Origin: Myxococcota bacterium
GTDB lineage: Bacteria; Myxococcota_A; UBA9160; JAFDDA01
Length of the DNA: 64,000 nt
Assembly: GCA_965228475.1 (NCBI GenBank)
Contig: OZ245817.1
Location: 1,280,001 to 1,344,000 of the forward strand
Reading direction: 5' to 3'
In this document: piece after piece, positions 21,233 through 63,724 of the stretch
Numbering within the stretch: the first letter of the stretch is position 1
Layout: every line of letters starts with the position of its first letter
Notes under the pieces: model-generated
Told to the model about the DNA's origin: nothing
The model's input: only the letters and a program-made list of their open reading frames with translations
Databases searched by the model: none
Translations under genes and position numbers: made by a program

Positions 21233-21610
21233 ATGGCGCAGCACAGGATCCTGATCGTCGAGGACAGCCCGATGATGCGGCAGCTGCTCACCTTCGCATT
21301 GAAGCGTCTGAAGGACGTCGACATCGTCGAGGCCCAGGACGGCATGGACGGCCTGCGCAAGGTGACGAGCGACCACTTCGACCTGGCGCTGATCGACATC
21401 AACATGCCGGTCATGGACGGCCTCAAGCTGATCAGCCTGATCCGGGGCGAGGACAGCCTGAAGGAGATGCCGGTCTGCGTCATCACGACCGAAGGCGCCA
21501 AGGAAGACCGTGCCCGCGCGCTGACCCTCGGGGCCAACGAGTATCTGACGAAGCCGATCCAGGCGAACCAGGTGCTCTCCGTCGCGAAGTCGCTGCTGAA
21601 GCTCGAGTGA
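21233..21610 (+). CDS. cheY: Single-domain response regulator, CheY-like
   Basis: ILIVEDSP, LIDINMPVMDG, YLTKPI; AGGAGG RBS. Confidence 0.9.
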   Translation: MAQHRILIVEDSPMMRQLLTFALKRLKDVDIVEAQDGMDGLRKVTSDHFDLALIDINMPVMDGLKLISLIRGEDSLKEMPVCVITTEGAKEDRARALTLGANEYLTKPIQANQVLSVAKSLLKLE

Positions 21611-21656
21611 GCCGCCAGCGGGTCCCGCGGTGACCCAGCGGGCCATCCCGCGGTGA
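21607..21656 (+). repeat. Imperfect 23-bp tandem repeat encoding two GTGA-coupled 8-aa mini-ORFs
   Basis: GTG AGC CGC CAG CGG GTC CCG CGG TGA / GTG ACC CAG CGG GCC ATC CCG CGG TGA. Confidence 0.6.
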
Positions 21657-21689
21657 AAGAGGGCGGGGATTTTGGTATGACCTCGCCTC

Positions 21690-22223
21690 GTGAGACGCAC
21701 TTCGAATCGAACGCTCCTGGCCCTCCTCCTGGCCGTCCTCGTCGGGTCCGCGGGCTGTGGCTACTCGATGGTCCGCTACCAGGGCGCCTTCCCCGATGCG
21801 GAGACCCTGGCGATCGAGCCCCTGAGCAATGAGAGCTACGAGCCGGGCGTCGAAGCCGTCGTGCTCGAAGCCCTCCGGCGCGAGGCGCTCCAGCGCAGCG
21901 GCCTCCGCCTGATCGAAGATCCCGAAGCGGCGGACATCGTGATCTCCGGCGCCGTCTCGAGCCTGATCATCCAGCCCCGCAGTTTCTCCTCGGTGGTCCT
22001 GGCCCTCGAGTACGAGGTCTTCCTCCAGATCCAGCTCGCCGCCCGCAACGGCGATGGCGAGCCGCTCGTCCTGGACGGGCGGGCGCAGTACGAGCGCGAC
22101 TTCTACACCTCGAGCCCCGACATCGAGGCCACCCGCAAGAACCGGCGCGAAACCATCCATCGCATGGCGAGCGTCCTGGCCGACCGCGTGTACGACTCGC
22201 TCTACGAGTCCGCCACGCCTTGA
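21690..22223 (+). CDS. lptE: LPS assembly lipoprotein LptE
   Basis: Lipoprotein signal ending SAG-CGY; upstream of holA as in the usual leuS-lptE-holA order. Confidence 0.8.
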   Translation: MRRTSNRTLLALLLAVLVGSAGCGYSMVRYQGAFPDAETLAIEPLSNESYEPGVEAVVLEALRREALQRSGLRLIEDPEAADIVISGAVSSLIIQPRSFSSVVLALEYEVFLQIQLAARNGDGEPLVLDGRAQYERDFYTSSPDIEATRKNRRETIHRMASVLADRVYDSLYESATP

Positions 22224-22269
22224 CCGCGGAGGACGCCACCCCGTGAACCCGGAAGGCGCCAGGCCGTGA
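22220..22269 (+). other. Two NTGA-coupled 8-aa mini-ORFs bridging lptE and holA
   Basis: 22220-22246 (M)TAEDATP and 22243-22269 (M)NPEGARP; GGAGG and GGAAGG inside. Confidence 0.5.
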
Positions 22270-23243
22270 CCCCCGAAGAGCTTCGCGAGGAGCTCGAGGG
22301 CGGGCAGGTTCGCCCCGCGTACCTCCTGGCCGGCGAAGAGGCGCTCCTGCGCGATGACGCCCTCGCGGCCCTGCGGCGCATCGTCCTGGCCGAAGGCGCC
22401 GCCGACTTCAACTGGGACCTCCTGCCCGCTTCTTCCACGACGCCCGCCCAGCTCCGCGACGCCCTCGCGATGCTCCCGGTGATGGCGCCCCGGCGCCTGG
22501 TCTGTCTCCAGGGCATCGAGGAACGCCGCGCCGGATCGCGCGAGCTCGTGGAGGCCCTCGCCGAGCTGGTGCCGGACCTCTCGCCCGAGGCCAGCGTCGT
22601 GCTCGTGGTGACGGCCGCGAAGGCGGATCGCCGGGGGCGCTGGGCCAAGGCCTTCGCCTCGGCCGGTGGCGTCGTCGAGTGCGAAGCCCCGAAGAACCGC
22701 CGATCGCTCCAGTCCTTCGTGAAGGCGGAGGCGAAACGTCAGGGCGTGAAATTCGAGGCCGGTGCCGCGGAGGCGCTGGCCGAACGCATCGGGCCCGAGC
22801 TGTTGATGCTGCGCCAGGAGATCGCCAAGGTCGCGCTGCTGGCCGGCCCGGACACGCCGGTCGGCCGCGCCCACGTGGCGACGGCGACGAGCGACGTGGC
22901 CGAGGAGCCGATCTGGGAACTGACGGACGCCATCGGAGAGGGCAGGGGGGCGGCGGCCCTCGGCGTGCTCGGCAAGCTTCTCGGCGGAGGTGCGGCGCCG
23001 CCGGCCCTGCTCGGTTCGCTCGCGAACCACTTCCGCAAGCTCCTGCGGGTGCGCAGCGGGCAGCAGCCCCTCGGGCCGCCGTTCGTCGTGAAGAAGCTCC
23101 AGCGGCAGGCCGGCCGCTACACGCCGGCGCGGCTGCGCCGCTGCATCGACGCCATCCACGAGGTGGACCTCACCCTGAAGGGCCGCGGCGGGATCTCTCC
23201 CGGCCTGGCCCTCGAACGTCTGGTGATGGGTCTGTCTGCCTGA
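22266..23243 (+). CDS. holA: DNA polymerase III delta subunit
   Basis: PAYLLAGEE, LPVMAPRRLV, EIAKVAL, IWELTDAI, DLTLKG; lptE-holA-rpsT context. Confidence 0.9.
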   Translation: MTPEELREELEGGQVRPAYLLAGEEALLRDDALAALRRIVLAEGAADFNWDLLPASSTTPAQLRDALAMLPVMAPRRLVCLQGIEERRAGSRELVEALAELVPDLSPEASVVLVVTAAKADRRGRWAKAFASAGGVVECEAPKNRRSLQSFVKAEAKRQGVKFEAGAAEALAERIGPELLMLRQEIAKVALLAGPDTPVGRAHVATATSDVAEEPIWELTDAIGEGRGAAALGVLGKLLGGGAAPPALLGSLANHFRKLLRVRSGQQPLGPPFVVKKLQRQAGRYTPARLRRCIDAIHEVDLTLKGRGGISPGLALERLVMGLSA

Positions 23244-23273
23244 GACGCCTCGATCGGGGGACCGATCGGGCTC

Positions 23274-23304
23274 CGCTCGCATCGGGGGAAACCCCGATGG
23301 AGCG
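23274..23304. terminator. GC-rich hairpin between convergent holA and rpsT
   Basis: CATCGGGG-GAAA-CCCCGATG (23280-23299), extendable by CGCTC/GAGCG; no long U tract. Confidence 0.6.
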
Positions 23305-23315
23305 AAGAAGAGGCA

Positions 23316-23567
23316 CTACTGGGTGCGGCTGGCGAGGCGCGAGACGAGCCGGCTGGCGCGCTTGGCCGGGATCACGCCCTTGCTGGCGGCCCGGCGAAGC
23401 TGGCTCTCGGCGAGGCGCGTGAGCGCCGCGGCATCGTCGGCACCGGAATCCACGGCTTCCTGGGCCCGCTTGAGGGTCGCCCGGACACGGGTCTTCACGG
23501 CGCGGTTCCGCGCTCGGCGGACTTCGTTCTGGCGGGCACGCTTGACCGCCGATTTGTGGTTCGCCAC
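23316..23567 (-). CDS. rpsT: 30S ribosomal protein S20
   Basis: MANHKSAVKRARQNEVRRARN...AASKGVI...ASRLVSRLA; AAGGAG RBS. Confidence 0.96.
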   Translation of the reverse strand: MANHKSAVKRARQNEVRRARNRAVKTRVRATLKRAQEAVDSGADDAAALTRLAESQLRRAASKGVIPAKRASRLVSRLASRTQ

Positions 23568-23721
23568 GGAGGCTCCTTCGAGGACGGCGGCCCTGGGGCC
23601 GCTGGGCGGCGAAACATAGCGGGCCGGCAGGAAAAATCGACCCGCGGGGCCGGGCCCGCAGGGCCCCTCCTGGAGCTCCGGGCCGAGGCCCCCGGGGATG
23701 CCCCCAAGGCCGCCTCCGGCC

Positions 23722-23748
23722 TCCAGCCGAGCGCCTCGGAAGCCGATA
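23722..23748 (+). promoter_or_regulatory. Possible sigma28 promoter
   Basis: TCCAG(23722-26)-N15-GCCGATA(23742-48). Confidence 0.45.
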
Positions 23749-23780
23749 CGACAGGGGATTTCGTTTGTTCCGGAGGGGGC

Positions 23781-25661: not shown

Positions 25662-26599
25662 GCCTTCTGCTCGAAGGGACGCTCGAAGACATCCGCCTCG
25701 CGGACCTGCTGCGGCTGATCGCGCGCGAACAGCGGACCGGCGCGCTGCGGGTGACGATCGACGGCGTCTCGCACCGGCTCGTCCTCTCGGAGGGCCGGCT
25801 CGTCGCCGCCCTCGTCGGCGAAGAGGCCGAACCGGCGCCGCTCGAGGAGACGGTCCTCGCGCTGGTCCGATTCCGCCGCGGCTCCTTCCAGCTCCTGCCC
25901 TCGGACGACACCCAGCCGCCCGCCGACGGCGTCGACGGGATCCATGCCGAGGCCCTCGCGGGCAAGGCGGACATGGCGCTGATCGAGCTCGAAGAGCGGC
26001 TCGATGCGATCGGCAGCGAAGCGGGCACGCCCACGCGCGACGCCTTCCCGACGCCGCGCCAGATGGAAGAACTCGACCCGGCCACGCGCACGGTCTACGG
26101 CCTGATCGACGGCGAGCGCGATCTGGCCGAGGTCATCCTGCGCAGCCGGCTCGATCCGACCCAGGTGCTCGATGCCCTGGACGGGCTCGCCGGGGACGAC
26201 CTCGTGAAGCTCGACACGCCCGTCGAAGCTTCGGAGAGCCCGCCGACGCCGCCGCGCGCGCGCCGTCGGCTGCCGCTCGAGGGGCTCTCGGCGGCGCTGC
26301 CCCTGGCCGCTCTTCTCGCGGGCCTCGGTTTCGTCTCCGCCCAGCCGGACCCGCCGGCGCCGGCGCCCTTCGACGTCCAGGAGGATCCCCTGGCCGCGGC
26401 CCGCGCGGCCTTCGGGGTCGAACGCCTGCGCGCCGCGGTGGAAGCGCACCGCTTCGTCGAGGGGGCCTGGCCGGCCCGTCTCGAGGAGCTGGCCGAGCGT
26501 GGCTACGTCGCCCGGGAGGCGTTGGCGGACGCCCAGGGGCGCCCTTATTATTACTCCGCGCGCGAAGACGGTTTCGTCCTGCTCGCACCGGAGCGCTAG
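25658..26599 (+). CDS. DUF4388 domain membrane protein with pseudopilin(GspG)-like C-terminus
   Basis: LEGTLEDIRLADLLRLIAREQRTGAL; one TM; VEAHRFVEGAWPARLEEL...DAQGRPYYY. Confidence 0.65.
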   Translation: MSLLLEGTLEDIRLADLLRLIAREQRTGALRVTIDGVSHRLVLSEGRLVAALVGEEAEPAPLEETVLALVRFRRGSFQLLPSDDTQPPADGVDGIHAEALAGKADMALIELEERLDAIGSEAGTPTRDAFPTPRQMEELDPATRTVYGLIDGERDLAEVILRSRLDPTQVLDALDGLAGDDLVKLDTPVEASESPPTPPRARRRLPLEGLSAALPLAALLAGLGFVSAQPDPPAPAPFDVQEDPLAAARAAFGVERLRAAVEAHRFVEGAWPARLEELAERGYVAREALADAQGRPYYYSAREDGFVLLAPER

Positions 26600-26659
26600 G
26601 CGCTCTCGTCCCGGAGCGCCGACGCTCCCGTTGCTTCCGATCCCATTCGAGGGCTCCAC

Positions 26660-27679
26660 ATCCCGCGGCAAGACGCACAGACGCGCGAGACCCTGATCTT
26701 CGACGACAACCCGACGGCGGCCACGCTGTATGGCGACGGCGATCGCACCCTTCGCATCCTCGAAGACGAACTCGGCGTGGATGCCCACGCGCGGGGCAAC
26801 GAAGTCCGGCTCGTCGGAACGCCCGAGGGCGTGGCGACCGCTCGCAAGGTGCTCGAGGAACTCTACGCCCAGGTGCGACAGGGGCGCAGCCTCGACGGGC
26901 GCGACGTCCAGGACGCCGTTCGGATGGTGAACGAGAGCCCGGACGTGAACCTCGACAAGGTCTACGAGAACGTGCTCTCGGCGGTCGGCTCACGCCACCG
27001 GATCGGGGCGAAGAACCTCTCCCAGCGCCGCTACATCGAGCTGATGCAGCAGCACGACCTCGTCTTCTCCGTGGGGCCGGCGGGCACGGGCAAGACCTAC
27101 CTCGCCATGGCGATGGCGGTCGCGGCCCTGAACCGCCACGAGGTCTCGCGCGTCGTGCTGACCCGCCCGGCGGTCGAAGCGGGGGAGCGGCTCGGCTTCC
27201 TGCCCGGCACGATGGCCGAGAAGGTGAACCCGTACCTGCGCCCGCTCTACGACGCGCTCCACGACATGATGGATTTCGAGAAGGCGGCCCGACTCGTCGA
27301 GCGCGGCGTGATCGAGGTGGCGCCGCTCGCCTTCATGCGCGGCCGCACCCTGAACGATGCCTTCGTCATCCTCGACGAGGCACAGAACACGACGCGCGAG
27401 CAGATGAAGATGTTCCTGACGCGGCTCGGCTTCAGCTCGCGCGCCATCGTCACCGGCGACATCACCCAGATCGATCTGCCCACGCCGCGCGACAGCGGAC
27501 TCGTCGAGGCGCTGCGGATCCTCGACCGCGTCGACGCCATCGGCTTCATGGAGTTCAGCAAGAACGACGTCGTCCGGCACCCGCTCGTGCAGACGATCAT
27601 CGACGCCTACGAGCGCTTCGCGGACCGCAACCCGAATGGCGGCTCCCCGAAAGAGAAGCCGGGCTCGAACGGCCGATGA
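26660..27679 (+). CDS. phoH: PhoH-like ATPase (start probably non-canonical ATC at 26660; first GTG at 26777)
   Basis: GPAGTGKTYLA, LTRPAVEAGERLGFLPG, FMRGRTL, ILDEAQN, DVVRHPLV. Confidence 0.92.
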   Translation: MPRQDAQTRETLIFDDNPTAATLYGDGDRTLRILEDELGVDAHARGNEVRLVGTPEGVATARKVLEELYAQVRQGRSLDGRDVQDAVRMVNESPDVNLDKVYENVLSAVGSRHRIGAKNLSQRRYIELMQQHDLVFSVGPAGTGKTYLAMAMAVAALNRHEVSRVVLTRPAVEAGERLGFLPGTMAEKVNPYLRPLYDALHDMMDFEKAARLVERGVIEVAPLAFMRGRTLNDAFVILDEAQNTTREQMKMFLTRLGFSSRAIVTGDITQIDLPTPRDSGLVEALRILDRVDAIGFMEFSKNDVVRHPLVQTIIDAYERFADRNPNGGSPKEKPGSNGR

Positions 27680-27702
27680 GTCCGGGCACCGCCGGCCGAT
27701 GA
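27676..27702 (+). other. ATGA-coupled 8-aa mini-ORF bridging phoH and ybeY
   Basis: MSPGTAGR; CGGCCGATGA repeated at 27670 and 27693. Confidence 0.5.
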
Positions 27703-28142
27703 CCGTTCGCCTGGCCGGGCCCCCCGAGGCCCCGGGCCTCCCCCGAGCCGATACGAAGCTCCTGCTCGAACGCGCCCGGAAGGTGCTGGCGGCCCTGGGC
27801 CACGCGCGCTCCGAGCTCTCCCTGACCCTGACCGACGACGACGGCATCGCCGAGCTGAACGCCCAGTACCGCGGCAAGCCCCGGCCGACGGACGTGCTCT
27901 CGTTCTCGCTCTTCGAGGGCGACCACGCCGACCACCGCGGCAAGCTCCTCGGCGACGTGGTGATCGGCGTCGAGCAGGCGGCGCGCCAGGCCCGGGCCGC
28001 CCACCGGGGCCTCGACCGGGAGCTCGCGGTCCTGACGATCCACGGCGTCCTGCACCTGCTCGGCCACGACCACGAAGAAGACGACGAAGCGCGCCGCATG
28101 CAGGCCGAGGAGCGCCGCCTGCGCCGGGAGCTCGGGCTTTGA
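27699..28142 (+). CDS. ybeY: rRNA maturation endoribonuclease YbeY
   Basis: LNAQYRGKPRPTDVLSF, LGDVVI, IHGVLHLLGHDH. Confidence 0.95.
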   Translation: MTVRLAGPPEAPGLPRADTKLLLERARKVLAALGHARSELSLTLTDDDGIAELNAQYRGKPRPTDVLSFSLFEGDHADHRGKLLGDVVIGVEQAARQARAAHRGLDRELAVLTIHGVLHLLGHDHEEDDEARRMQAEERRLRRELGL

Positions 28143-28183
28143 CGCCGGAGCTCGGGGTTTGTCGGCGGGAACTCGAACGATGA
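28139..28183 (+). other. NTGA-coupled 14-aa mini-ORF bridging ybeY and lnt
   Basis: (M)TPELGVCRRELER from TTG 28139; stop overlaps ATG 28180. Confidence 0.4.
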
Positions 28184-29763: not shown

Positions 29764-30891
29764 GCGCGACTGCCCAGGAACTCGACCCCACGGAGCTGGC
29801 CGACCGCCTGCGCGCCCTGCAGGCCCGATTCGGCGAGCTCCGGGGGCGTCTTTGACGTAGAGGGTCTGCGCGCACGGGCCGCCGAGCTCGAGGAGGCCTC
29901 TGCCAAGCCCGACCTCTGGGAGGATCGCGAGCGCGCCGAGGGCGTGCTGCGCGACAAGCGCGCGGTCGAGCGCGAGCTCGAGGTCTTCGACGCGCTCGCG
30001 GAGCAGCTCGAGGAAGCCGAAGTCCTGCTCGAACTCGCCACCGAGGCGGAGGACGAGAGCACGCTCGCCGAGGCGGCCGGGAAGCTCGGCTCGGCCGAGG
30101 GCGCCCTCGAAGACGCGGAGCTCCGCCGCCTGCTGGCCGGGGAGCACGACGCGTCGAACGCCATCCTCTCGATCAACGCGGGGGCCGGCGGTACCGACGC
30201 CTGCGATTGGGCCGAGATGCTCCTGCGCATGTACACACGCTGGGCGGAGCGGCGCGGCTACAAGACCGAACTGTTCGACGTGCAGCCGGGCGACGAGGCC
30301 GGCATCCGCAGCGCCACGCTGAACGTGATCGGTGACCACGCCTACGGCTACGCCCACACCGAGCAGGGCGTCCACCGGCTGGTCCGGATCTCCCCCTTCG
30401 ATTCGCAGTCCCGCCGCCACACGGCCTTCGCGAGCCTGGCCGTCTTCCCCGAGATCGACGAGGGCGTCGACGTCGAGATCGCCGACAAGGATCTGCGCAT
30501 CGACACCTACCGGGCCGGCGGCGCCGGCGGGCAGCACGTGAACAAGACGGATTCGGCCGTGCGCCTCACCCACGAGCCGACCGGGATCGTCGTGCAGTGC
30601 CAGAACGAACGCTCCCAGCACAAGAACAAGGCGGCGGCCATGAAGGTGCTGCGCGCGCGGCTCTACGAGCACTACCGTCTCGAGAAGGAAAAAGAGATGG
30701 ACGCCCTGCGCGGGGAGAAGCGCGAGATCGGCTTCGGGAGCCAGATCCGCTCCTACACGCTGCACCCGTCCCAGCGCATCAAGGACCACCGGACCAAGCT
30801 CGAGATCGGCAACACCGAGGCGGTGCTCGACGGCGACCTCGACGCGTTCATCCGTGCGACGCTGCTACACAACGCCGGGGGTGGCTCTTGA
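29760..30891 (+). CDS. prfB: Peptide chain release factor 2 with programmed +1 frameshift at 29850-29856
   Basis: ORF1 29760-29855 ends GGGGG CGT CTT TGA C; +1 frame contains SPF and GGQ motifs. Confidence 0.96.
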
Positions 30892-30917
30892 ATCCGCGGG
30901 GGCGGCTCTTGAATCCG
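30876..30917 (+). repeat. 21-bp tandem duplication of the prfB end (1 mismatch), overlapping a 16-aa bridging mini-ORF at 30888-30938
   Basis: CGGGGG(T/C)GGCTCTTGAATCCG x2. Confidence 0.85.
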
Positions 30918-30934
30918 GATCTCAGGGAGGCTTC

Positions 30935-32467
30935 GTGAGCGAACAGGAGCGACAGGTCCGCGCCGAGCGGCTGGCCGCGCTGCGGGCGGAGGGCATCGAC
31001 CCGTTTCCGCCGCGCACCGGAGCGCACGTCCCGATCGCCGAGGTGCGTGCGGCCCACGACGAGAAGGATGCGGAGACCCTCGAAGCCGAGGCGCCCGAGG
31101 CCGCCATCGTCGGGCGCATCGTCGCCTCGCGCTCCTTCGGGAAGCTGCGCTTCTGGAAGCTCGTCGAGGACGGCACGGGCATCCAGGTGAGCATCCGCAA
31201 GCAGCAGGTGGAGGCGGAGGTCTTCGCCCTCGCCAAGCAGATGGACGTGGCGGACTTCGTGCGGGTCGAGGGCGTCGTGTGGCGGACGAAGACCGACGAA
31301 CTCACCGTTGACGCTCGCCGGATCACCCTGCTCAGCAAGGCGCTCCGCCCGCTTCCCGAGAAGTGGCACGGTCTGCAGGACGTCGAGGCCCGCTTTCGCC
31401 AGCGCTACCTCGACCTGATCGCGAACCCGCGCGCGCGGGAGATCGCCATCCTGCGCAGCCGGATCGTGACCGCGATGCGCCGCTTCCTCGACGAGCGCGG
31501 CTTCCTCGAGGTGGAGACGCCGGTCCTCCAGCCGATCTACGGCGGAGCGAACGCACGCCCCTTCACGACGCACCACAACCAGCTCGGTCAGGATCTCTTC
31601 CTTCGCATCTCCGACGAGCTCTACCTGAAGCGGCTCGTGATCGGTGGCCTCGACCGCGTCTACGAGATCGGGCGGAACTTCCGCAACGAGGGGGTGTCCA
31701 AGAAGCACAACCCCGAGTTCGCGATGATGGAGTGCTACCAGGCCTACGCGGACTACGAGGACATGATGGATCTCGTGGAAGGCATGGTGAAGCAGATCGC
31801 GAAGGAGGTGCTCGGCACGGGGACGATCGAGTTCCAGGGAACGAAGATCGAGCTCGACGTCGAGTGGCCGCGGCGCTCCATGCGCGACGCCGTGCTCGAG
31901 GCGACCGGCGTCGACATCCAGGCGGCCGAGGACGTGGAATCCCTGCGGGCCGCCGTGAAGGAGAAGGGGCTCGATCCCGGCGATGCGCCGACCTGGGGCG
32001 TCCTGGTCGACGACCTCTTCAGCGAGCACGTCGAGCCGAGCCTCGTGCAGCCGACCTTCATCACGAACCACCCGGTGGCGATCTCGCCGCTCGCGAAGGA
32101 ATCCCGCGAGGACCCGCGCGTGGCCGAGCGCTTCGAGATCTTCATCGCCGGCATGGAGGTCGGGAACGCCTTCAGCGAGCTCAACGACCCCGAGGTCCAG
32201 CGCGAGCGCTTCGAGCAGCAGAGCCGCGCGAGCGGGGAGGGCGACGACGAGGCCCACCCGATGGACGAAGCGTTCCTGCGCGCCATGGAGCACGGCATGC
32301 CGCCGACGGGGGGGCTCGGCGTCGGCGTCGGCCGCCTGGCCATGGTGCTCGCGGACGCACCCTCCCTGCGCGAGGTGAAGCTCTTCCCGCACATGCGCCC
32401 CGAAGCGTCCGAAGACTCGGTCGACGGCGCGTCCGAAGACGCGCCCGACGGCGAAGCCGGGGACTGA
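30935..32467 (+). CDS. lysS: Lysine--tRNA ligase (class II)
   Basis: LRPLPEKWHGL, RQRYLDL, GGANARPF, FRNEG, HGMPPTGGLGVG; GGAGG RBS. Confidence 0.97.
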   Translation: MSEQERQVRAERLAALRAEGIDPFPPRTGAHVPIAEVRAAHDEKDAETLEAEAPEAAIVGRIVASRSFGKLRFWKLVEDGTGIQVSIRKQQVEAEVFALAKQMDVADFVRVEGVVWRTKTDELTVDARRITLLSKALRPLPEKWHGLQDVEARFRQRYLDLIANPRAREIAILRSRIVTAMRRFLDERGFLEVETPVLQPIYGGANARPFTTHHNQLGQDLFLRISDELYLKRLVIGGLDRVYEIGRNFRNEGVSKKHNPEFAMMECYQAYADYEDMMDLVEGMVKQIAKEVLGTGTIEFQGTKIELDVEWPRRSMRDAVLEATGVDIQAAEDVESLRAAVKEKGLDPGDAPTWGVLVDDLFSEHVEPSLVQPTFITNHPVAISPLAKESREDPRVAERFEIFIAGMEVGNAFSELNDPEVQRERFEQQSRASGEGDDEAHPMDEAFLRAMEHGMPPTGGLGVGVGRLAMVLADAPSLREVKLFPHMRPEASEDSVDGASEDAPDGEAGD

Positions 32468-32470
32468 CCC

Positions 32471-35162: not shown

Positions 35163-35261
35163 GAACCCCGTAGCGCAAAGCCTCTCCGCCCGACACCGCG
35201 GCGGACGTGCGAGTTCCGACTCAAGTTCTTGGAAAACAAGGGAAATGACTGGCTCTCGGGC

Positions 35262-41079: not shown

Positions 41080-42080
41080 CGGCCCTGGCACCGCTGCGCC
41101 AGCGCGGCGGCCCCACCCGGGTCGCGGTGATCGGGGCCGGGCACATGGGCGCGCTCCACGTGAGCAAGCTCCACGCCCTCGCCGCCGAGGGCGAAGTGAC
41201 CCTCGCCGGCGTCGCGGACATCGACCCCTCCCGGGCCCAGGCCGTCGCCAGCGCGTACGGCATCCATCACACCCAGGACTTCCGGGAGCTCCTGCGCCGG
41301 GCGGACACGGCGATCGTGGCGGTGCCGGCCGTCGACCACTACGAGGTCGTGAACGAGGCGCTGAAGGCCGGGCTCGACGTCCTCGTCGAGAAGCCGATCG
41401 CGGCGAGTCTCCCCGAGGCCGAGGCGCTGCTCGCGACGGCGCGCAGCGAGAAGCGGTTGCTCCAGGTCGGTCACCTCGAGCGTTTCAACGCCGCCTTCCA
41501 GACGGTCGCGGACTCGATCGAACGCCCGCGCTTCATCGAGGTCCACCGGCTCGGACCCTTCCCCGCGCGCGCCACGGACGTCGACGTCGTCTGCGACCTC
41601 ATGATCCACGACCTCGACATCATCCTGCGGCTGGTCGGCGAAGAGCCGGAGCGGGTCGAGGGCGCGGGCGTCGCCATCCTCTCCTCGGAGCTCGACATCG
41701 CCAACGCGCGCCTGACCTTCCCGAGCGGCTGCGTCGCCAACGTCACGGCGAGCCGGGTCTCCCCGACGCCGATGCGCAAGGTCCGGATCTTCCAGCCCGA
41801 CGGCTACTTCTCCCTCGACTTCCTCGAGAACCGCGCAGCGATCTTCCGTCACGCGGGAGAGGACGATCCCGAGCCGATCCGCATGGAGCCCCTCGACCTC
41901 GGCGAAGGCGACGCGCTCGACCTCCAGCTGCGGGCCTTCCTCGCGGCGGTCCGCACGCGGGAGGAGGCCTCGGTGACGCCCGAGGAGGCGATGCGCGCGC
42001 TGCGCACCGCGCTGCGAATCACCGACGCGATCGAGCCGGCCGACCCCTCCGGCGCCGCCGGCCCGACCCCCCGGACGTGA
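41076..42080 (+). CDS. Gfo/Idh/MocA oxidoreductase, GnnA-like
   Basis: IGAGHMG, LVEKPIA, VGHLERFN, DLMIHDLD; between lpxI and lpxB. Confidence 0.85.
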   Translation: MTALAPLRQRGGPTRVAVIGAGHMGALHVSKLHALAAEGEVTLAGVADIDPSRAQAVASAYGIHHTQDFRELLRRADTAIVAVPAVDHYEVVNEALKAGLDVLVEKPIAASLPEAEALLATARSEKRLLQVGHLERFNAAFQTVADSIERPRFIEVHRLGPFPARATDVDVVCDLMIHDLDIILRLVGEEPERVEGAGVAILSSELDIANARLTFPSGCVANVTASRVSPTPMRKVRIFQPDGYFSLDFLENRAAIFRHAGEDDPEPIRMEPLDLGEGDALDLQLRAFLAAVRTREEASVTPEEAMRALRTALRITDAIEPADPSGAAGPTPRT

Positions 42081-43348
42081 GCCGGGCCTCGAGCAGCGTC
42101 AGCCCCGCGGACGGCAGCCTCCTGCCCCGGCCGATGGACCCGCCGACCGTCTTCGTTTGCGCCGGCGATGCCTCGGGGGACATCCACGCGGCGGGCTTCG
42201 TGCGGGCCTTCCGCGAGCGCGAACCCGGGGCCCGCTTCATCGGTCTGGGCGGCGTCGAGATGGAAAAGGCGGGGGTGGAGCTCCTCGTCCACCAGCGCGA
42301 GATTGCCGTGGCCGGGTTCTTCGCGGTGCTGGGTGCGCTCAGCAAGATCTTCGCGGCGTGGCGGAGGCTCGGCCAGCACCTCCGCCTCCTGCGGCCGGAT
42401 CTCGTCGTGCTGATCGACTCGCCGGACTTCAACCTGCCCCTGGCCCGCCGCGCGAAGAAGGCCGGGATCCCGGTGCTCTACTACATCGGACCGCAGGTCT
42501 GGGCCTGGCGCCGCGGGCGCGTGCGCAAGATCGCCCGACGGGTCGACCGCCTGGCCGTGATCTTCCCCTTCGAGGTGGAGTTCTACCGCTCGACCGGTCT
42601 GCAGGTCGACTTCGTGGGCCATCCCCTCGTCGAACGGATGGCCGAAGCGCGCGAACGCCACGGGCGCGAAGCGGACCGGAACACGCTCGGCCTGCCCCTC
42701 GATCGGCCGGTGATCACGCTCCTGCCCGGCAGCCGGCGCAACGAGATCGAGAACATGCTGCCGCTGTTCCTCGAGACCGCGCGCGCCGTCCATGCGCGCG
42801 ACCCGCGCGTGGTGTTCGTGCTGCCGGTCGCGCCGACCCTCGACCCTGCGGAGATCGCGGCCCGCGTGGCGGCGGCGGGTCTGCCGTCCTTGCTCCGCCT
42901 CGAGGTCGTCGAGGGCCAGGCCTACGAAGCCATCTCCGCCGGCGACGTCGCCCTCGCGATGCCCGGCACGGTGAACCTCGAAGTCGCACTGCTGCGCCGC
43001 CCCCAGGTGGCCGCGGTCCGCGTCGGCGCCGTGACCTGGGCCATCGCCAACCGGCTCGTGCGCCTCGACTCGGTCACCCTGCCGAACCTGATCGCCGGCG
43101 AGCCCGTGATCCCCGAGTACCTCCAGGCCGACGCCGAGCCCGAGGCCCTGGCCGATGCGCTGCTCGGGCTGCTCTCGGGCCCCGAGCGCGAGCGTCAGCT
43201 CGACGCGCTCGACCGGCTTCGGGAGTCCCTCGGCCCCGGGGGCGCGGCCGCCCATACCGCCGCCATCGCGCGGGAGATGACGGGCCGTACGGGCCCGGAA
43301 GAGGCGCCCGCGCACGACGCAAAGGACGGCGGTTCCGCTGAGTCCTAG
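42077..43348 (+). CDS. lpxB: Lipid-A-disaccharide synthase (alternative ATG 42134)
   Basis: AGDASGD, IDSPDFN, PQVWAWR, IFPFE, FVGHPL, LLPGSR. Confidence 0.95.
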   Translation: MSRASSSVSPADGSLLPRPMDPPTVFVCAGDASGDIHAAGFVRAFREREPGARFIGLGGVEMEKAGVELLVHQREIAVAGFFAVLGALSKIFAAWRRLGQHLRLLRPDLVVLIDSPDFNLPLARRAKKAGIPVLYYIGPQVWAWRRGRVRKIARRVDRLAVIFPFEVEFYRSTGLQVDFVGHPLVERMAEARERHGREADRNTLGLPLDRPVITLLPGSRRNEIENMLPLFLETARAVHARDPRVVFVLPVAPTLDPAEIAARVAAAGLPSLLRLEVVEGQAYEAISAGDVALAMPGTVNLEVALLRRPQVAAVRVGAVTWAIANRLVRLDSVTLPNLIAGEPVIPEYLQADAEPEALADALLGLLSGPERERQLDALDRLRESLGPGGAAAHTAAIAREMTGRTGPEEAPAHDAKDGGSAES

Positions 43349-45682: not shown

Positions 45683-45695
45683 CGCCTCCGAAGCC

Positions 45696-50849: not shown

Positions 50850-51979
50850 TGGCGAAGGCAGCGAAGACATCCAAGGCCAAGGCCAAGGCCAAGGCCAAGG
50901 CCAAGGCGGGGCGCGGCAGGTCCGCCGGCCGCCCCGCGAACGTCCCCGCGCGCCTGGACCGCGCCCGGCTCGAACGCCTGCTCGACCGCTTCGAGGACGC
51001 CGAGATCCTGGTCGTCGGCGACGTCGTGCTCGACGAATACCTCTGGGGCGAAGTCGACCGCGTGAGCCCCGAGGCGCCGGTGCCGGTCGTGCACCTGCGC
51101 GACGAGTCGACGGTGCTGGGCGGTGCGGGCAACGTCGTCCGCAACGTCGTGGCCCTCGGCGGCCGCTCGCGCTTCTGCTCTGTGGTCGGCGACGACGCCG
51201 CGGGCGCCCGCGTGCTCGATCTCCTGAAGGAGCTCGACGTCGACGTCGACGGCACCATCGTCGTCGAGGGCCGGCCGACGACGCGCAAGAGCCGCGTCGT
51301 GGCCCGCTCCCAGCAGGTCGTCCGCTTCGACCGGGAGACGGTCGATCCGATCCCCGCTCCCGCCGTCCGCGCGCTCCTCGGGGCGCTCGACGCGGCGCTC
51401 CCGAGCGCGGACGCGGCCGTCCTCGAGGACTACGCGAAGGGCCTCCTGACGCGCAAGACCATCGGCCAGGTGATGAAGCGCCTGCGCGCTGCGAAGGTGC
51501 CCGTCGCCGTCGATCCGAAGCACGACCTCGCGAGCTTCCGCGGTGCTTCGCTGCTCAAGCCGAACGTCCGCGAGACCGAGGCGCTGACGGGCATCGAGAT
51601 CCACGACGGCGAGACGCTCGCACAGGCGGTGGGGAAGCTCCGCAAGCGCGTGGGCCCGGCCGACATCGTGGTCACGCGCGGCCCGGAAGGCATGACCTGC
51701 TTCGCCGAAGGCGAGCCCGCCGGCGTCGACGTCCACACGCTCGCGCGGGAGGTCTTCGACGTGCAGGGCGCGGGCGACACCACCATCGCCGCGCTCGAGC
51801 TCGTTCGGGCGGTCGGCGGGAGCCTGCTCGAAGCGGCGGTCATCGCCAACGCCGCGGCCGGCGTCGTGGTGGGGAAGATCGGAACCGCCACGGTCACCCG
51901 CGACGAGATCCGCGAGATCCTTCCGAGCGCGATCGCCGCGGCCCAGGACCGGCCGCAGGGCCGCAGGAGCCGACGTTGA
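50849..51979 (+). CDS. rfaE1: D-glycero-D-manno-heptose-7-phosphate kinase (stand-alone RfaE domain I)
   Basis: VGDVVLDEYLWG..RVSPEAPVPV, DYAKG, DVQGAGDT. Confidence 0.92.
   Translation: MAKAAKTSKAKAKAKAKAKAGRGRSAGRPANVPARLDRARLERLLDRFEDAEILVVGDVVLDEYLWGEVDRVSPEAPVPVVHLRDESTVLGGAGNVVRNVVALGGRSRFCSVVGDDAAGARVLDLLKELDVDVDGTIVVEGRPTTRKSRVVARSQQVVRFDRETVDPIPAPAVRALLGALDAALPSADAAVLEDYAKGLLTRKTIGQVMKRLRAAKVPVAVDPKHDLASFRGASLLKPNVRETEALTGIEIHDGETLAQAVGKLRKRVGPADIVVTRGPEGMTCFAEGEPAGVDVHTLAREVFDVQGAGDTTIAALELVRAVGGSLLEAAVIANAAAGVVVGKIGTATVTRDEIREILPSAIAAAQDRPQGRRSRR
50871..50906 (+). repeat. Perfect (CCAAGG)6 in-frame microsatellite encoding (KA)n
   Basis: Six exact hexamer copies. Confidence 0.95.
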
Positions 51980-52013
51980 TTCGCCGCCGTGGAAGGAGCC
52001 GACGTTGATTCGC
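51965..52013 (+). repeat. Perfect 20-bp direct repeat (period 29) of RBS+stop/start junction, creating a 10-aa mini-ORF at 51976-52008
   Basis: AGGAGCCGACGTTGATTCGC at 51965-51984 and 51994-52013. Confidence 0.92.
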
Positions 52014-52895: not shown

Positions 52896-52920
52896 TGGGG
52901 GGAAGGAGGCCGCGCGGCGG

Positions 52921-53214
52921 ATGGCGCGCGTGCGGCCGAAGACGGGGGAAGAGCCGGAGGCGCGGGTCCCGAGCCTGCTGAACGTCGGCTACGGGAATCT
53001 CGTGGCGAGCGTCCGCGTGGTCGCCGTCGTGAACGCCCAGAGCGCACCGATGCGGCGTCTGCGGGAAGAGGCCGGCGCGCGCGGGAAGCTCGTCGACGCC
53101 ACCCAGGGGCGCCGCACCCGCAGCATCGTCGTCACGGACAGCGACCACGTCGTCCTTTCCGCGATCAACCCGGACACGCTCGCGGCACGGCTGGCGGCGG
53201 AGGACGGGGCGTGA
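52921..53214 (+). CDS. remA: DUF370/RemA family protein
   Basis: LLNVGYGNLV...LVDATQGRRTRSIVVTDSDHVVLSA; yicC-remA-gmk order. Confidence 0.9.
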   Translation: MARVRPKTGEEPEARVPSLLNVGYGNLVASVRVVAVVNAQSAPMRRLREEAGARGKLVDATQGRRTRSIVVTDSDHVVLSAINPDTLAARLAAEDGA

Positions 53215-53249
53215 GCCGGGCGTCCTGCAAGGGCCCGGAGCGCGCATGA
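53211..53249 (+). other. NTGA-coupled 12-aa mini-ORF bridging remA and gmk
   Basis: (M)SRASCKGPERA; GGAG at 53237. Confidence 0.45.
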
Positions 53250-53923: not shown

Positions 53924-53963
53924 CGGGCCCGATTGCCAGCCCGCGCCGGGCTCGGCTACCCTG

Positions 53964-56956: not shown

Positions 56957-56963
56957 GGCGACC

Positions 56964-58106: not shown

Positions 58107-58120
58107 GGCTTCGCCCTTTT
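58095..58120 (+). terminator. Possible terminator hairpin between convergent genes
   Basis: AAGGGCG...CGCCCTT followed by a short T run. Confidence 0.35.
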
Positions 58121-58143
58121 CGCCGGGCCGTCGGACCGCCGCG

Positions 58144-59913: not shown

Positions 59914-59966
59914 CGGGGTGCCGGAGGCCGGTTGCGAGGGGTCCGAGGTGTGGGCCGAGGACGCCG

Positions 59967-60158
59967 TCAGGCGACCTTGGTGACGCGTCCGGAGCGGATG
60001 CAGCGCGTGCACACGTCGATGCGGCGCACGGTGCCCTCGACCACCGCGCGAACGCGCTGGAGGTTCGGGTGCCAGGTGCGCGACGTCTTGCGGTTCGAGT
60101 GGCTGACGTTGCGCCCCACGCGGGGACTCTTCTGGCAGACGTGGCAGACCTGGGCCAT
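59967..60158 (-). CDS. rpmB: 50S ribosomal protein L28
   Basis: CHVC...GRNVSHSNRKTSRTWHPNLQ...VCTRCIRSG. Confidence 0.96.
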   Translation of the reverse strand: MAQVCHVCQKSPRVGRNVSHSNRKTSRTWHPNLQRVRAVVEGTVRRIDVCTRCIRSGRVTKVA

Positions 60159-60242
60159 GGGGCATCTCCGTTTGCGGAAACGGCTAGTTAGCCCAAGGGG
60201 AGGGCCGCCGCAAAAGCCGGCCCGGGCGGGGGGCTCTGGCCC

Positions 60243-61661
60243 CTAGCGCAGCTCCGCCAGGATGGCGTCCCCGGCGCGCAGGCCGAGCAGGAGCTGTCCT
60301 TCGAGCCCGAGGCCCGCGACCTGCTCGAAGGGCAGGCGATGGACCGGCGGCTTGTTCGAGGCACGGGTCTCGACCTCCCCCGGCCAGCCCTCGCCGGCGG
60401 GCGGGTCGGCCAGCCGGCTCTCGTCGTCCCAGCTCGGGCGCGGGGTCGCCTGGCGCACCAGGCGCTCGCCGCAGAAGGGCATGAGCTCGCGGACGACCGC
60501 TTCGAGGGCGTCGGCCACGGCGTCCCGGGGCTCGCCCTTGGCCACCACCGCCGAAGCCACGACGTCCTCGAGGCCTTCGGCGTCTTCGCTCTCGGGCCTC
60601 GGGTAGCGGGCGATCGTGACGGGGCTCGGGCCCGGCGCCTCCGCCGAAGGGTCGGCCACGACGACGAGGGAGCGGCCCATGCCGTCCGGGACGGCGCTCG
60701 GGTCGCATTCGAAGTGGACCTGCACGCGGCGATGGCGGGCTCCCGGTGCGGCGTCGAGGAAGGCGGGCACCGGCCGGTCCCAGGCCCGGAGCCGCTCCGC
60801 GAGGGCGCAGGGCGCGGTGTTCACGATGAGCGTGCGGCCGGCCCAGAGCTCACCGACGCCGTCGACCGCGATGGCCGGGTCGCTGCCCGCACCCGCGAAG
60901 GAGAAGGGCGCGCCGATCGTGCGGATCTCGCCGTGCCGGGAGCGGATCCGCCGCAGCAGGACCTCCCGGAGGCCGAGCCCGGAGTGGGGGAAGGCCGCAC
61001 CGCCCTGGAGCGTGGCGCCGAGCAGGCGGGCCCGGGCCTCCGGGGTCGGAGCGGCTTCGCCGAGGTTCGAGAGCGCGCGGACCTGGGCGTCGAGCAGACG
61101 GGCGAGGGTGCCCTGCGCCCCGGAGGCTTCGACGGGCAGACCGCGCCCGTGCAGCGAAGGCCGGCCGCTCCCGCGAGAGAGCCCCCGCAGGCCCCCCGCG
61201 CGCACGATCGGCGACGCTTCCATGGCCCCCCACTCGGCCTCGCTCGCGCTGGCCAGCGCACGCGTCAGGTTGCGCGCCTCCTCGGGCTTCGCGAGGCCCC
61301 AGGCGACGAGCTCGTCGACGCAGAGCTGGGGTTCTCCGAGATCCACGCGTGCATCGGGGAGGATCATCTGGAGGGCGATCGCCTGATCCTCGAGGGCGCG
61401 CCGCTCGATCAGCGGGAGGCCGAGCTCGCGCAGGCAGACGTCGAGGGCTCCCCCGCGCGCGCCCGCCAGGTAGAAGGGCTCGCGCACCACCGCGGGCGTC
61501 TCCTCGGCGGCGTTCTCCTGGACGATCAGGATGCGCTCGCCTTCGATCGCGAGGCGCGCGGCGGTGACGAGGCCGGGGAGCGAGCTGCCGAGGATCACCG
61601 CGTCCCAGCGGCGCGCGTGGCGCGGGACGTTCGGCCGCCGGGACTTCCCGGCCGGGCTCAT
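60243..61661 (-). CDS. Degenerate FAD/NAD-binding oxidoreductase-like protein (possibly desaturase-related)
   Basis: WDAVILGSSLPGLVTAARLA.EGERILIVQE Rossmann-like start; C-terminal GLGLEGQLLLGLRAG. Confidence 0.55.
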   Translation of the reverse strand: MSPAGKSRRPNVPRHARRWDAVILGSSLPGLVTAARLAIEGERILIVQENAAEETPAVVREPFYLAGARGGALDVCLRELGLPLIERRALEDQAIALQMILPDARVDLGEPQLCVDELVAWGLAKPEEARNLTRALASASEAEWGAMEASPIVRAGGLRGLSRGSGRPSLHGRGLPVEASGAQGTLARLLDAQVRALSNLGEAAPTPEARARLLGATLQGGAAFPHSGLGLREVLLRRIRSRHGEIRTIGAPFSFAGAGSDPAIAVDGVGELWAGRTLIVNTAPCALAERLRAWDRPVPAFLDAAPGARHRRVQVHFECDPSAVPDGMGRSLVVVADPSAEAPGPSPVTIARYPRPESEDAEGLEDVVASAVVAKGEPRDAVADALEAVVRELMPFCGERLVRQATPRPSWDDESRLADPPAGEGWPGEVETRASNKPPVHRLPFEQVAGLGLEGQLLLGLRAGDAILAELR

Positions 61662-61731
61662 GGCCGTGCTCTCCGGGACTTCCCGGCCGGGCTCATGGCC
61701 GTGCTCTCCGGGACTTCCCGGCCGGGCTCAT
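61638..61731 (-). repeat. Perfect 35-bp tandem repeat (2.7 copies) forming ATGA-coupled 12-aa mini-ORFs
   Basis: CCGGGACTTCCCGGCCGGGCTCATGGCCGTGCTCT at 61638 and 61673, partial copy at 61708. Confidence 0.95.
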
Positions 61732-61762
61732 CGGACTTCCTGGGGAACCGGGCCGGCGGGGC

Positions 61763-62863
61763 TCATTCGAACCCCTGGGGAACCGGGTCGAAGACCAGCG
61801 AGGCGTCCTCCGGCCCCGACTTCTGGACGGTGTGGCCGATGCGGAACACCCGCTCGCCCATGCCGGAGAGGCGCTGGGTCATGTCCTCGGCGATGTCGTT
61901 CGCGACCACGAGCACCATGCCGATGCCGCAGTTGAAGACGCGCAGCATCTCGGCCTCGGAGATCTCGCCGTGGCGCTGGATCAGGCTCATCACCGCGGGC
62001 CGCTGCCAGGAGGTCGGGTCGATCACGGCCTGGACGGTCTGGGGAAGCACGCGGGGCAGGTTCCCGAGGAAGCCGCCCCCGGTGACGTGGACGATCCCGT
62101 GGATCGGGAAGTCGCGCAGCAGGTTCAGGATGGGCTTCACGTAGAGCCGCGTGGGCGCGAGCAGCGAGCCCGCGAGGGTGTTGTTCAGCTCCTCGTTCTC
62201 ACCCTTCCAATCGAGCTTGCCCGCGGCCACGGCGGACTCGGCGACCTGGCGGACGAGGGAGTAGCCGTTGCTGTGGAAGCCGCTCGAGCCGAGGCCGAGG
62301 ATCACGTCGCCGGCGCGGATGCTCGAGCCGTCGATCACCTTGTTGCGCTCGACCACGCCGACGCCGAAGCCGACGAGCTCGAGCTCGCCCGGCGGGTAGA
62401 AGCCCGGCATGGTCGCCGTCTCCCCGCCGAGGAGCGAGCAGCCCGCGCGGCGGCAGCCTTCGGCCACGCTGCGCAGCGCTTCCTTGGCCTGGCCCGTGTC
62501 GAGCTTGCCCATGGCGAGGTAGTCGAGGAAGACCAGCGGCTCGGCGCCCTGGACGACGAGGTCGTTCACCACCATCGCGACGCAGTCGATGCCGACGGTG
62601 TCGAAGCGGCCCATGTCCGCGGCGAGCTTCAGCTTGGTGCCGACGCCGTCGGCGCCGGCCACGAAGACCGGGTCCTTGTAGCGGTCGGGCGCCTTGAACA
62701 GGCCCGCGAACCCCCCGATCCCGGACAGGATCTCCGGCCGCGCGGTGCTGCGCGCGATGTCCTTGATCTCTTCGACGAAGCCTTCGTCGTGATCGAGATC
62801 CACGCCGGCCTGGGCGTAGGCGGGGGCGGTCGGGTTGCTCTTCGGGTCGTCGTCGGCGCTCAC
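61763..62863 (-). CDS. purM: Phosphoribosylformylglycinamidine cyclo-ligase
   Basis: YAQAGVD, GGFAGLF, DGVGTK, GGETA.MPG, SSGFHSNGYSL, HVTGGG, VFNCGIG. Confidence 0.97.
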   Translation of the reverse strand: MSADDDPKSNPTAPAYAQAGVDLDHDEGFVEEIKDIARSTARPEILSGIGGFAGLFKAPDRYKDPVFVAGADGVGTKLKLAADMGRFDTVGIDCVAMVVNDLVVQGAEPLVFLDYLAMGKLDTGQAKEALRSVAEGCRRAGCSLLGGETATMPGFYPPGELELVGFGVGVVERNKVIDGSSIRAGDVILGLGSSGFHSNGYSLVRQVAESAVAAGKLDWKGENEELNNTLAGSLLAPTRLYVKPILNLLRDFPIHGIVHVTGGGFLGNLPRVLPQTVQAVIDPTSWQRPAVMSLIQRHGEISEAEMLRVFNCGIGMVLVVANDIAEDMTQRLSGMGERVFRIGHTVQKSGPEDASLVFDPVPQGFE

Positions 62864-62869
62864 GAGGGT

Positions 62870-62898
62870 TGGATAGGAGAGGCGCGACCCCGAGTCAA
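62870..62898 (-). promoter_or_regulatory. Putative sigma70 promoter giving a leaderless purM transcript
   Basis: Minus strand TTGACT(62898-93)-N17-TATCCA(62875-70), 6 nt before GTG 62863. Confidence 0.5.
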
Positions 62899-62960
62899 TT
62901 CGACCGCCCCGTCGAGCGCTTTCGGGATGGCGGGCCGGGCCACCCCGTGCCCATGCTAGG

Positions 62961-63701
62961 ATGCGCCCCGTGGAGATCGGCGTCGTGATCCCGACGCTCG
63001 ACGAAGCGCAGAACGTCGTCGCGGCGCTGCGCAGCGTCGGGCGCGAGGGGCCTGGGGACGAAGCCTTTGCCCACGCCGGCCCGCCCCTCGCCGTCGAGAT
63101 CGTCGTGGTGGATGGCGGCAGCCGGGACGAGACCTGTGAGCGCGCCCGGAACGAAGGGGCTCGGGTGATCGAGCTGCCGAAGGACGCGGCCAGCGGCCGG
63201 GCCCGCCAGCTCCAGGCCGGCTTCGAAGCCTGCGAGGGAGACGCCGTTCTCTTTCTGCACGCCGATACGCGGCTCGTGCCCGCCTGGCGCGGCGCGGTCG
63301 CGGCGGCGCTCGCCGACCCGGCCGTCGCCGGGGGCGCCTTCCGCTTTGGCTTCGACCGCCGGGAAGCGCCGTCGTGGCCGATGAAGATCGTCGAGTGGGG
63401 AGCGCGCGTGCGGAGCGAACGGTTCGGGATGCCCTACGGCGACCAGGCGATCTTCGTCCGGCGGCCGGTGCTCGAAGCGATCGGCGGCGTCCCGCAGGTG
63501 CCGATGATGGAGGACCTCGATCTCGTGGATGCGATCAAGCGGCAGGGGAGGTGGGTGCAGCTCGAGGAACCGGCGCTGACCTCCGCGCGCCGCTACCGCG
63601 CCCGGGGAACCCTCCGGACCGTCGTCCGCAACGCCCTGGCCATGACCGCGTGGTGGCTCGGCCTCGACCGCGAGCGCGTGGCGCGCTGGTACCGCCGATG
63701 A
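62961..63701 (+). CDS. GT2 glycosyltransferase (TIGR04283-like); alternative start GTG 62970
   Basis: VVIPTLDE, VVDGGS.D, GRARQL.AG, FLHAD, PYGDQAIF, MEDL, TSARR. Confidence 0.85.
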   Translation: MRPVEIGVVIPTLDEAQNVVAALRSVGREGPGDEAFAHAGPPLAVEIVVVDGGSRDETCERARNEGARVIELPKDAASGRARQLQAGFEACEGDAVLFLHADTRLVPAWRGAVAAALADPAVAGGAFRFGFDRREAPSWPMKIVEWGARVRSERFGMPYGDQAIFVRRPVLEAIGGVPQVPMMEDLDLVDAIKRQGRWVQLEEPALTSARRYRARGTLRTVVRNALAMTAWWLGLDRERVARWYRR

Positions 63702-63724
63702 GCGCCCAAGGGGATCGCCGATGA
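63698..63724 (+). other. ATGA-coupled 8-aa mini-ORF bridging GT2 and the ABC gene
   Basis: MSAQGDRR; CGCCGATGAGCG repeated at 63693 and 63716. Confidence 0.5.

Follow-up and report, generated by a model that had tools for sequence, protein, structure and literature searches.

Termination–reinitiation at NTGA overlaps, where the stop codon of one gene shares bases with the start codon of the next, is an established process, and translational coupling by this route at ATGA and TGATG overlaps has reportedly been treated by Huber et al. in 2019. A second related system, the mycobacterial interspersed repetitive units (MIRU), is said to go back to Supply et al. in 1997. Here we describe a stretch of 64,000 nt (the window) from a Myxococcota bacterium, comprising positions 1280001–1344000 of contig C1 of genome G000 (5.0 Mb, one contig, 70.5% G+C), in which eight gaps between co-directional genes are filled exactly by one to three mini open reading frames (mini-ORFs). 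Each mini-ORF starts on the TGA of the frame before it, and its own TGA lies on the start codon of the frame that follows. We refer to these mini-ORFs as relays and to gaps filled in this way as bridged.

The nearest described systems share parts of this arrangement; the papers cited by accession or identifier are cited here from parts of their text. In termination–reinitiation proper, a gap of about 20 nt is reported almost to abolish the process in E. coli and Haloferax (PMC10666635). As in that system, each relay step is a −4 NTGA overlap, and the ancestral junctions of the relays are ordinary −4 or −1 overlaps; the known pairs, however, are two real genes joined directly, whereas here the genes are separated by one to three non-coding-like mini-ORFs. 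The MIRU of mycobacteria resemble the relays in that −4 spacing couples an ORF of the repeat unit to the gene on one or both sides and in that tandem copies occur, an arrangement said to minimise the impact on expression of the flanking gene (review PMC12548453). MIRU are a dispersed family of related 40–100-bp units found at 41 sites and apparently mobile (PMC2734929), whereas the inserts described here are local copies of their own junctions, belong to no dispersed family, have periods of 11 to ~ 74 nt and occur in a different lineage.

In Mycobacterium tuberculosis, Term-seq data include overlaps of 1 or 4 nt between upstream ORFs (uORFs) and genes and between one uORF and another, the 4-nt NUGA overlap being the commonest (10.1101/2022.06.01.494293), and short ORFs have been described as “delivering” ribosomes to the downstream gene (review PMC12548453). 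Like the relays, these short ORFs have no proposed role beyond handing a ribosome on across a 4-nt overlap, and uORF-to-uORF overlaps are among them. These uORFs lie in 5′ leaders and use ordinary or leaderless initiation, whereas a relay mini-ORF lies within an operon, arose by duplication and would be started by reinitiation from an upstream gene. Finally, a two-codon minigene in axe-txe affects the translation of txe in a manner dependent on frame and distance (PMC8708949), and synthetic designs for coupling through short ORFs exist (review PMC12548453). In both, as would be the case here, the translation of a gene is raised or secured by a tiny ORF immediately ahead of it, and frame and distance matter; they are engineered, or a single regulatory case, whereas the relays arise across the genome as by-products of duplication. 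The idea is only partly new, since MIRU ORFs and ribosome-delivering uORFs are already in print. We found no genome-wide description of frame-filtered, locus-specific junction duplications in a literature search whose coverage left most subscription journals outside.

Bridged gaps in the window and in the genome

In all eight chains of the window every step is a −4 NTGA stop/start overlap on the same strand; on the + strand, tracing from each upstream TGA shows that every stop is a TGA and that each overlaps the next NTG (Table 1). The initial annotation, made by a reader from the sequence alone, had listed eight bridged junctions, one partly bridged at 21607 and one unbridged at 6261, and had counted ten gapped junctions with [AGT]TGA at both ends. 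Chain tracing found all of them as listed, and our own gene calls also give ten such junctions, with lptE re-started at 21690. The gene names proposed at the same time agree with Pfam matches, except that the “oxidoreductase”, the 472-aa gene downstream of purM, has no Pfam match. The starts of ybeY and lnt, which had been put forward as conjecture, are supported by alignments to relatives, which start from residue 1 and share their first residues.

Table 1 Relays and associated features of the window (positions as numbered in the window; TRF, Tandem Repeats Finder)
Feature	Position	Strand	Length and boundaries	Repeat structure
Relay mini-ORF 1 of 2, lptE–holA	22220..22246	+	8 aa; TTG start on lptE TGA; TGA on next GTG	Junction: TRF 22211–22279, period 23, 3.0 copies
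Relay mini-ORF 2 of 2, lptE–holA	22243..22269	+	8 aa; ends on holA start GTG at 22266	As above
Relay mini-ORF, phoH–ybeY	27676..27702	+	8 aa; ybeY start 27699	23-nt period; GGCCGATGA at both ends
Relay mini-ORF, ybeY–lnt	28139..28183	+	14 aa; 41-nt insert; lnt start 28180	Repeat units of ~ 20 nt; TRF 28122–28175, period 20, 2.6 copies
Relay mini-ORF, prfB–lysS	30888..30938	+	16 aa; lysS start 30935	Holds 21-nt duplicate of prfB end; TRF 30876–30917, 95%
Relay mini-ORF, rfaE-like (PfkB) to yicC	51976..52008	+	10 aa; yicC start 52005	29-nt period; 20 nt identical at both TTGA sites (11 left, TTGA, 5 right)
Relay mini-ORF, remA–gmk	53211..53249	+	12 aa; gmk start 53246	
Three chained relay mini-ORFs, purM to 472-aa gene	61658..61766	−	12 aa each: 61766–61728, 61731–61693, 61696–61658; downstream start 61661	35-nt tandem array, each unit beginning like the downstream gene (MSPAGKSRR); TRF 61638–61731, period 35, 2.7 copies, 100%
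Relay mini-ORF, GT2–ABC transporter	63698..63724	+	8 aa; ABC gene start 63721	23-nt period; CGCCGATGAGCG at both ends
Partial case	21607..21656	+	Two 8-aa NTGA-chained ORFs after response-regulator gene	23-nt tandem repeat
lptE, probable true start	21690..22223	+	GTG; signal peptide and lipobox	
Unbridged case	6261..6278	+	GTG on TGA, 5 aa, then TAA, 79 nt before next start	

Genes were called across the whole genome with a home-made caller that combines codon log-odds, start-codon type and a Shine–Dalgarno (SD) model and leaves the base after the start codon unused. This gave 4317 genes and 2978 co-directional neighbour pairs. Their stop codons, at 70% G+C, are 2112 TGA, 2070 TAG and 135 TAA; that is, TAG is about as frequent as TGA and TAA is rare. 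Full bridging was found at 96 of the 137 junctions with [AGT]TGA at both ends and a gap of 5–100 nt, and at 103 of 159 when gaps of 5–200 nt are admitted. Within the set of 137, the bridge consists of one step in 83 cases, two steps in 12 and three steps in one. Shuffling the interior of each gap at the same length gives 75.7 ± 3.2 bridged junctions, and randomising the frame as well gives 39.6 ± 5.3, the highest count among 300 trials being 57. The genome-wide count therefore exceeds both shuffled nulls, in the comparison that the initial annotation had proposed, and its estimate of a roughly one-in-three chance for a single bridge is close to the 29% (39.6/137) obtained here.

Stops of the form CTGA provide an internal control, since they match in geometry but offer no start codon. 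For gaps of 5–40 nt, the frame opened one base ahead of the upstream TGA ends exactly on the next start at 75 of 179 [AGT]TGA junctions against 17 of 145 CTGA junctions (p = 1.3e-9), and for gaps of 5–100 nt the bridged junctions number 95/289 and 44/367, respectively (p = 1e-10); three-step chains, which are included in the 96 of 137, are omitted from the counts in these comparisons. The same preference is seen in the gap lengths. With NTGA at both ends, gaps of 0, 1 and 2 mod 3 number 19, 87 and 30, the second class being the bridging frame. With CTGA upstream and NTGA downstream the numbers are 40, 44 and 33, and with TAG upstream and NTGA downstream 58, 63 and 54. The bridging pattern is real and strongly non-random.

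We give next to no weight to the view that the pattern arises by chance or as an artefact of assembly or gene calling. A single bridge is not rare once both ends are NTGA, and gene starts are uncertain in GC-rich DNA; yet the 96 observed bridges stand against an expectation of 39.6 ± 5.3, scans that are independent of start calls show the same frame bias (below), and the gene starts at the window junctions agree with where the proteins of relatives begin. The assembly is supported by contigs of three runs from two studies, one of which may be its source, that match the covered junctions without difference; they are identical to the window wherever they cover it, and probably come from the same strain; no strain polymorphism was seen.

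Origin and age of the inserts

Several mini-ORFs had been read at the outset as the start of the downstream gene joined to the end of the upstream gene, and hence as duplications of the junction, and the repeat structure agrees with this. Tandem repeats were found by TRF at six of nine junction sites in the window, with periods of 23, 23, 23, 20, 21 and 35 nt, the last array being 100% identical. In the ybeY–lnt insert the middle TTGA has decayed to TTGT, and what was a multi-unit repeat is now one 14-aa ORF closing on the lnt start. Across the genome, direct repeats of at least 8 nt surround both NTGA sites at 23 of the 87 bridging-frame junctions; the two remaining frames give 0/19 and 1/30, and random pairings 2.5%. 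Self-identity of at least 0.6 at lag d, the period of the presumed duplication, was found in 33 of 83 relays and 16 of 1014 control junctions. The signature of tandem duplication is thus still visible in about 40% of relays.

The inserts are locus-specific and do not form a dispersed family: an all-against-all blastn-short comparison of 91 inserts gave a single cross-locus match, of 14 nt, and only 1 of the 91 matches elsewhere in the genome. A function of the mini-ORF peptides was considered and rejected, the inserts being without similarity across loci. Nor do the mini-ORFs qualify as regulatory leader peptides or attenuator uORFs; the genes on either side of them overlap in relatives, and each peptide is pieced together from the ends of its neighbouring genes.

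The polarity of the change was determined by alignment of the window junctions with relatives from the same order, of which 10–19 were informative at each junction. At phoH–ybeY, ybeY shares its frame with the NTG position on the phoH stop in 18 of 18 relatives, 12 of them having an exact −4 overlap with the same first residues. At lptE–holA, holA is in frame with an [AGT]TG overlapping the lptE TGA in 9 of 10. The downstream gene is also in frame at ybeY–lnt (19/19) and GT2–ABC (14/14), an exact −4 overlap is found at prfB–lysS (12/14) and rfaE–yicC (14/14), an overlap is present at remA–gmk in 10 of 14, and a TGATG overlap at the purM junction in 8 of 13. The genome of the same genus, G001, has a plain overlap at seven of the eight window junctions and no overlap at the purM junction. 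Since the relatives carry tight overlaps at these junctions, the gaps in G000 are derived; the gaps are young and come from tight stop/start overlaps of the ancestral type.

The comparison of G000 with G001 covers 57 orthologous junctions (the contigs of G001 are short) and, being drawn partly from loci chosen in the window, is not an unbiased sample. Ten relays of G000, seven of them from the window, have an orthologous junction in G001; at nine of these G001 has an overlap or is in frame with an overlapping NTG, one is of another kind, and none is a shared relay. On the unbiased G001 contigs there are three G000 relays and one G001 relay, again with none shared. Conversely, an 11-aa relay in G001 arose from a 32-nt duplication at a junction that is a plain overlap in G000. 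Independent relays were found at prfB–lysS in G013 (9 aa) and G004 (21 aa), at remA–gmk in G003 (3 aa) and at yicC–remA in G001 (13 aa). At prfB–lysS all three lineages in which the overlap is broken have an exactly bridged gap.

These observations bear on the suggestion, made with the initial annotation, that the number of relay steps tunes downstream expression. On this view, the relative expression of the two genes would be set by selection on the number and length of the steps; in its favour, reinitiation should lose some efficiency at each step, and chains of one to three steps do exist. The suggestion is not supported, however: the same-genus genome shares none of the ten relays, relatives further away have retained the overlap at the eight junctions of the window, and relays at the same junction differ in length between lineages (16, 9 and 21 aa at prfB–lysS). 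We therefore hold adaptive tuning to be highly improbable. The relays look like short-lived scars tolerated by selection and not like conserved regulators.

Reading frame of the inserts and the proposed path of the ribosome

Taking the repeats and the comparison of relatives together, we consider it probable that each gap is a recent tandem duplication or insertion, specific to its locus, of a tight overlap, and that the survivors are those that keep the stop–restart chain and are tolerated as scars. The ancestral junction would have been a tight NTGA overlap (in one case TGATG). A duplication of period d would put a second NTGA downstream, while the old restart codon would stay on the upstream TGA. 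With d = 2 mod 3, the start on the upstream TGA would open a short frame whose TGA falls on the true downstream start; with d = 0 mod 3, the downstream protein would merely be lengthened at its N-terminus; and with d = 1 mod 3, restarting ribosomes would cross the downstream start in the wrong frame. Duplications with d = 2 or d = 0 would persist and those with d = 1 would be purged, and the survivors would therefore form an unbroken stop–restart chain. Along it, ribosomes would restart at each NTGA and be handed on by termination–reinitiation, the mini-ORF peptides themselves being without function.

The frames can be examined independently of gene starts by using near-perfect duplications that span a stop codon, which were found without any start call. 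At [AGT]TGA stops, those with d = 0, 1 and 2 mod 3 number 7, 0 and 8. The corresponding numbers are 4, 4 and 1 at CTGA, 7, 7 and 11 at TAG, and 0, 1 and 1 at TAA stops. The d = 1 class thus accounts for 0 of 15 duplications at [AGT]TGA and for 12 of 36 where no start codon overlaps the stop (p = 0.0105). Repeats of at least 9 nt around the stop, taken in the same order of d, are distributed as 7, 1 and 25 at [AGT]TGA, 4, 6 and 9 at CTGA, and 12, 12 and 16 at NTAG.

Part of this distribution is supplied by mutation. Microhomology across the 529 −4 junctions of the genome is commoner at d = 2 mod 3 by 1.7-fold (4-mers) to 3.5-fold (8-mers), because the two genes then share codon phase; this effect should skew indels at the junctions of overlapping genes wherever a genome has strong codon periodicity. 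Matches of 10 nt between upstream tail and downstream head number 15 at lags of 2 mod 3, against 0 and 1 at the others. One might then suppose that the inserts are neutral scars of mutational bias alone, with no selection on frame, and the near-equality of d = 0 and d = 2 among the near-perfect duplications at [AGT]TGA would agree with this. We nevertheless think it very unlikely. The bias can account for the excess of d = 2 over d = 0 but not for the lack of d = 1: the supply of microhomology is equal for d = 0 and d = 1, yet the duplications number 7 and 0 and the repeats of at least 9 nt 7 and 1, and d = 1 is well represented at the CTGA, TAG and TAA stops. The ratio of 25:1 between d = 2 and d = 1 likewise remains improbable when odds of 2–3.5-fold in favour of d = 2 are allowed for (p = 0.0004–0.012). 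The best reading of these sequence counts is that a selective filter would act against the chain-breaking frame, on a mutational supply that already leans to the bridging frame.

The counterpart of bridging is the frame that runs on. For gaps of 5–40 nt, the frame opened at the upstream stop enters the next gene out of frame and continues there for more than 10 codons at 16 of 179 [AGT]TGA junctions and 65 of 145 CTGA junctions (p = 7e-14); for gaps of 5–100 nt, such long read-through occurs in 28/289 and 131/367, respectively. For starts overlapping the stop by 1 nt (stop then TG) the figures are 0/17 against 236/487 for stops with no start codon overlapping them. This lack of long out-of-frame read-through is the strongest signal in the data, and it would also follow if the mini-ORF were a safety stop only, ending an unavoidable restart before an out-of-frame run while the next gene initiates afresh at its own SD sequence with no hand-over. 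Such an account is helped by the SD match of at least 4 nt at 65% of the downstream starts of the 83 single-step relays, a frequency similar to that of other genes, and by the lack of conservation of relays. It would, however, be served equally by any stop within the gap, yet stops at other positions of the gap show no enrichment (9/179 against 5/145, gaps of 5–40 nt), the enrichment being specific to the TGA placed exactly on the start. In addition, the ancestral tight overlaps have been kept across an order, which argues that coupling matters at these pairs. A safety stop with no hand-over thus appears unlikely to us, and ribosomes can probably still be passed from gene to gene via the mini-ORFs.

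Two genomes outside the genus lean the same way, more weakly than G000. In a 1.2-Mb stretch of G013 (64.8% G+C, another family) bridged junctions number 9/40 at [AGT]TGA against 2/23 at CTGA, and long read-through 8/40 against 9/23. A 0.8-Mb stretch of G050 (58% G+C, same phylum) gives 3/18 against 0/12 and 3/18 against 7/12, respectively. The pooled difference in long read-through is significant (11/58 against 16/35, p = 0.009). Per Mb, G000 is about twice as rich in relays as G013.

A number of points weigh against the interpretation of the relays as a chain kept by selection and used for hand-over. The pooled excess of bridging in G013 and G050 is not significant (12/58 against 2/35, p = 0.07). 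The counts on which the frame filter is based are small (15 duplications against 36), gene starts were checked against relatives for the window junctions and four others, and the CTGA control differs from NTGA junctions in origin as well as in start competence. SD sequences are enriched before mini-ORF starts (45% against 15%), as expected by descent from the old junction, and are not independent evidence. The SD sequences that most downstream starts possess may mean that hand-over is unneeded; the claim made beforehand that most mini-ORFs carry an SD-like element is in any case only loosely true, holding for the single-step relays of the genome when the SD sequence before the downstream start is counted and for only 4 of 8 in the window. 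Part of the d = 2 excess, lastly, is mutational. On this score the initial proposal that selection keeps chain-preserving duplications needs qualifying, while the absence of the d = 1 frame at start-competent NTGA stops speaks for it; as an evolutionary inference it was largely right.

Remaining junctions and wider implications

The chain at 21607 breaks in a 59-aa ORF (21653–21832) and misses the likely lptE start, GTG 21690, and the site is therefore probably not a coupling junction. A start of lptE at this GTG is the most likely one, since it gives a signal peptide with a lipobox. Several relatives conserve a TGnTATAcCT-like motif 7–9 nt before it, which in G000 has the form TTTTGGTATGACCTCGCCTCGTG (window 21660–21700). 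The motif looks like a −10 element that would give a leaderless or very short-leader lptE mRNA. Elsewhere in the window, a GTG on the TGA of the GFO/IDH/MocA oxidoreductase gene is in frame with the lpxB ATG that our own caller placed at 42134, and the frame stays open as far as that ATG (window 42077–42134). The real lpxB start may be at 42077, with a −4 overlap.

Among the 83 single-step relays, 15 have mini-ORFs of exactly 8 codons (a 23-nt period), against 9 and 4 in the neighbouring length bins, which leaves a peak at this length not established. The window contains six such 8-codon units, at 22220, 22243, 27676, 63698, 21607 and 21630; control junctions peak instead at gaps of 8–10 nt. 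Relays are somewhat denser at 1.0–1.5 Mb of the genome (11 and 10 per 250 kb against a mean of ~ 5), a weak clustering in a region from which a reader had chosen the window. Plain −4 overlaps are also fewest (12) in the 1.0–1.25 Mb bin.

If the chain is really translated, restarting on stop-overlapping starts would be strong enough in vivo to shape the survival of mutations at ~ 100 junctions of one genome. Relays would then be a natural way round the distance limit of ~ 20 nt on termination–reinitiation (PMC10666635, cited in part). Annotators would gain a rule for calling starts in GC-rich genomes, synthetic biologists a set of natural spacer designs, and evolutionary biologists a case in which a mutational bias (codon-phase microhomology) can be separated from a selective filter (frame).

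More tentatively, since the sequence patterns lend it rather less than even credence, one may formulate a general frame rule for bacteria rich in NTGA overlaps, by which obligatory reinitiation on stop-overlapping starts would filter the inserts that a junction can tolerate, and the relays would be a widespread, unannotated class of translated spacers. Under this rule, inserts that persist would either close the chain, with d = 2 mod 3 or with several steps together, or extend the next protein in frame. Tightly coupled genes could in this way drift apart without losing their coupling, and the number of relays per genome would gauge the dependence of a lineage on termination–reinitiation.

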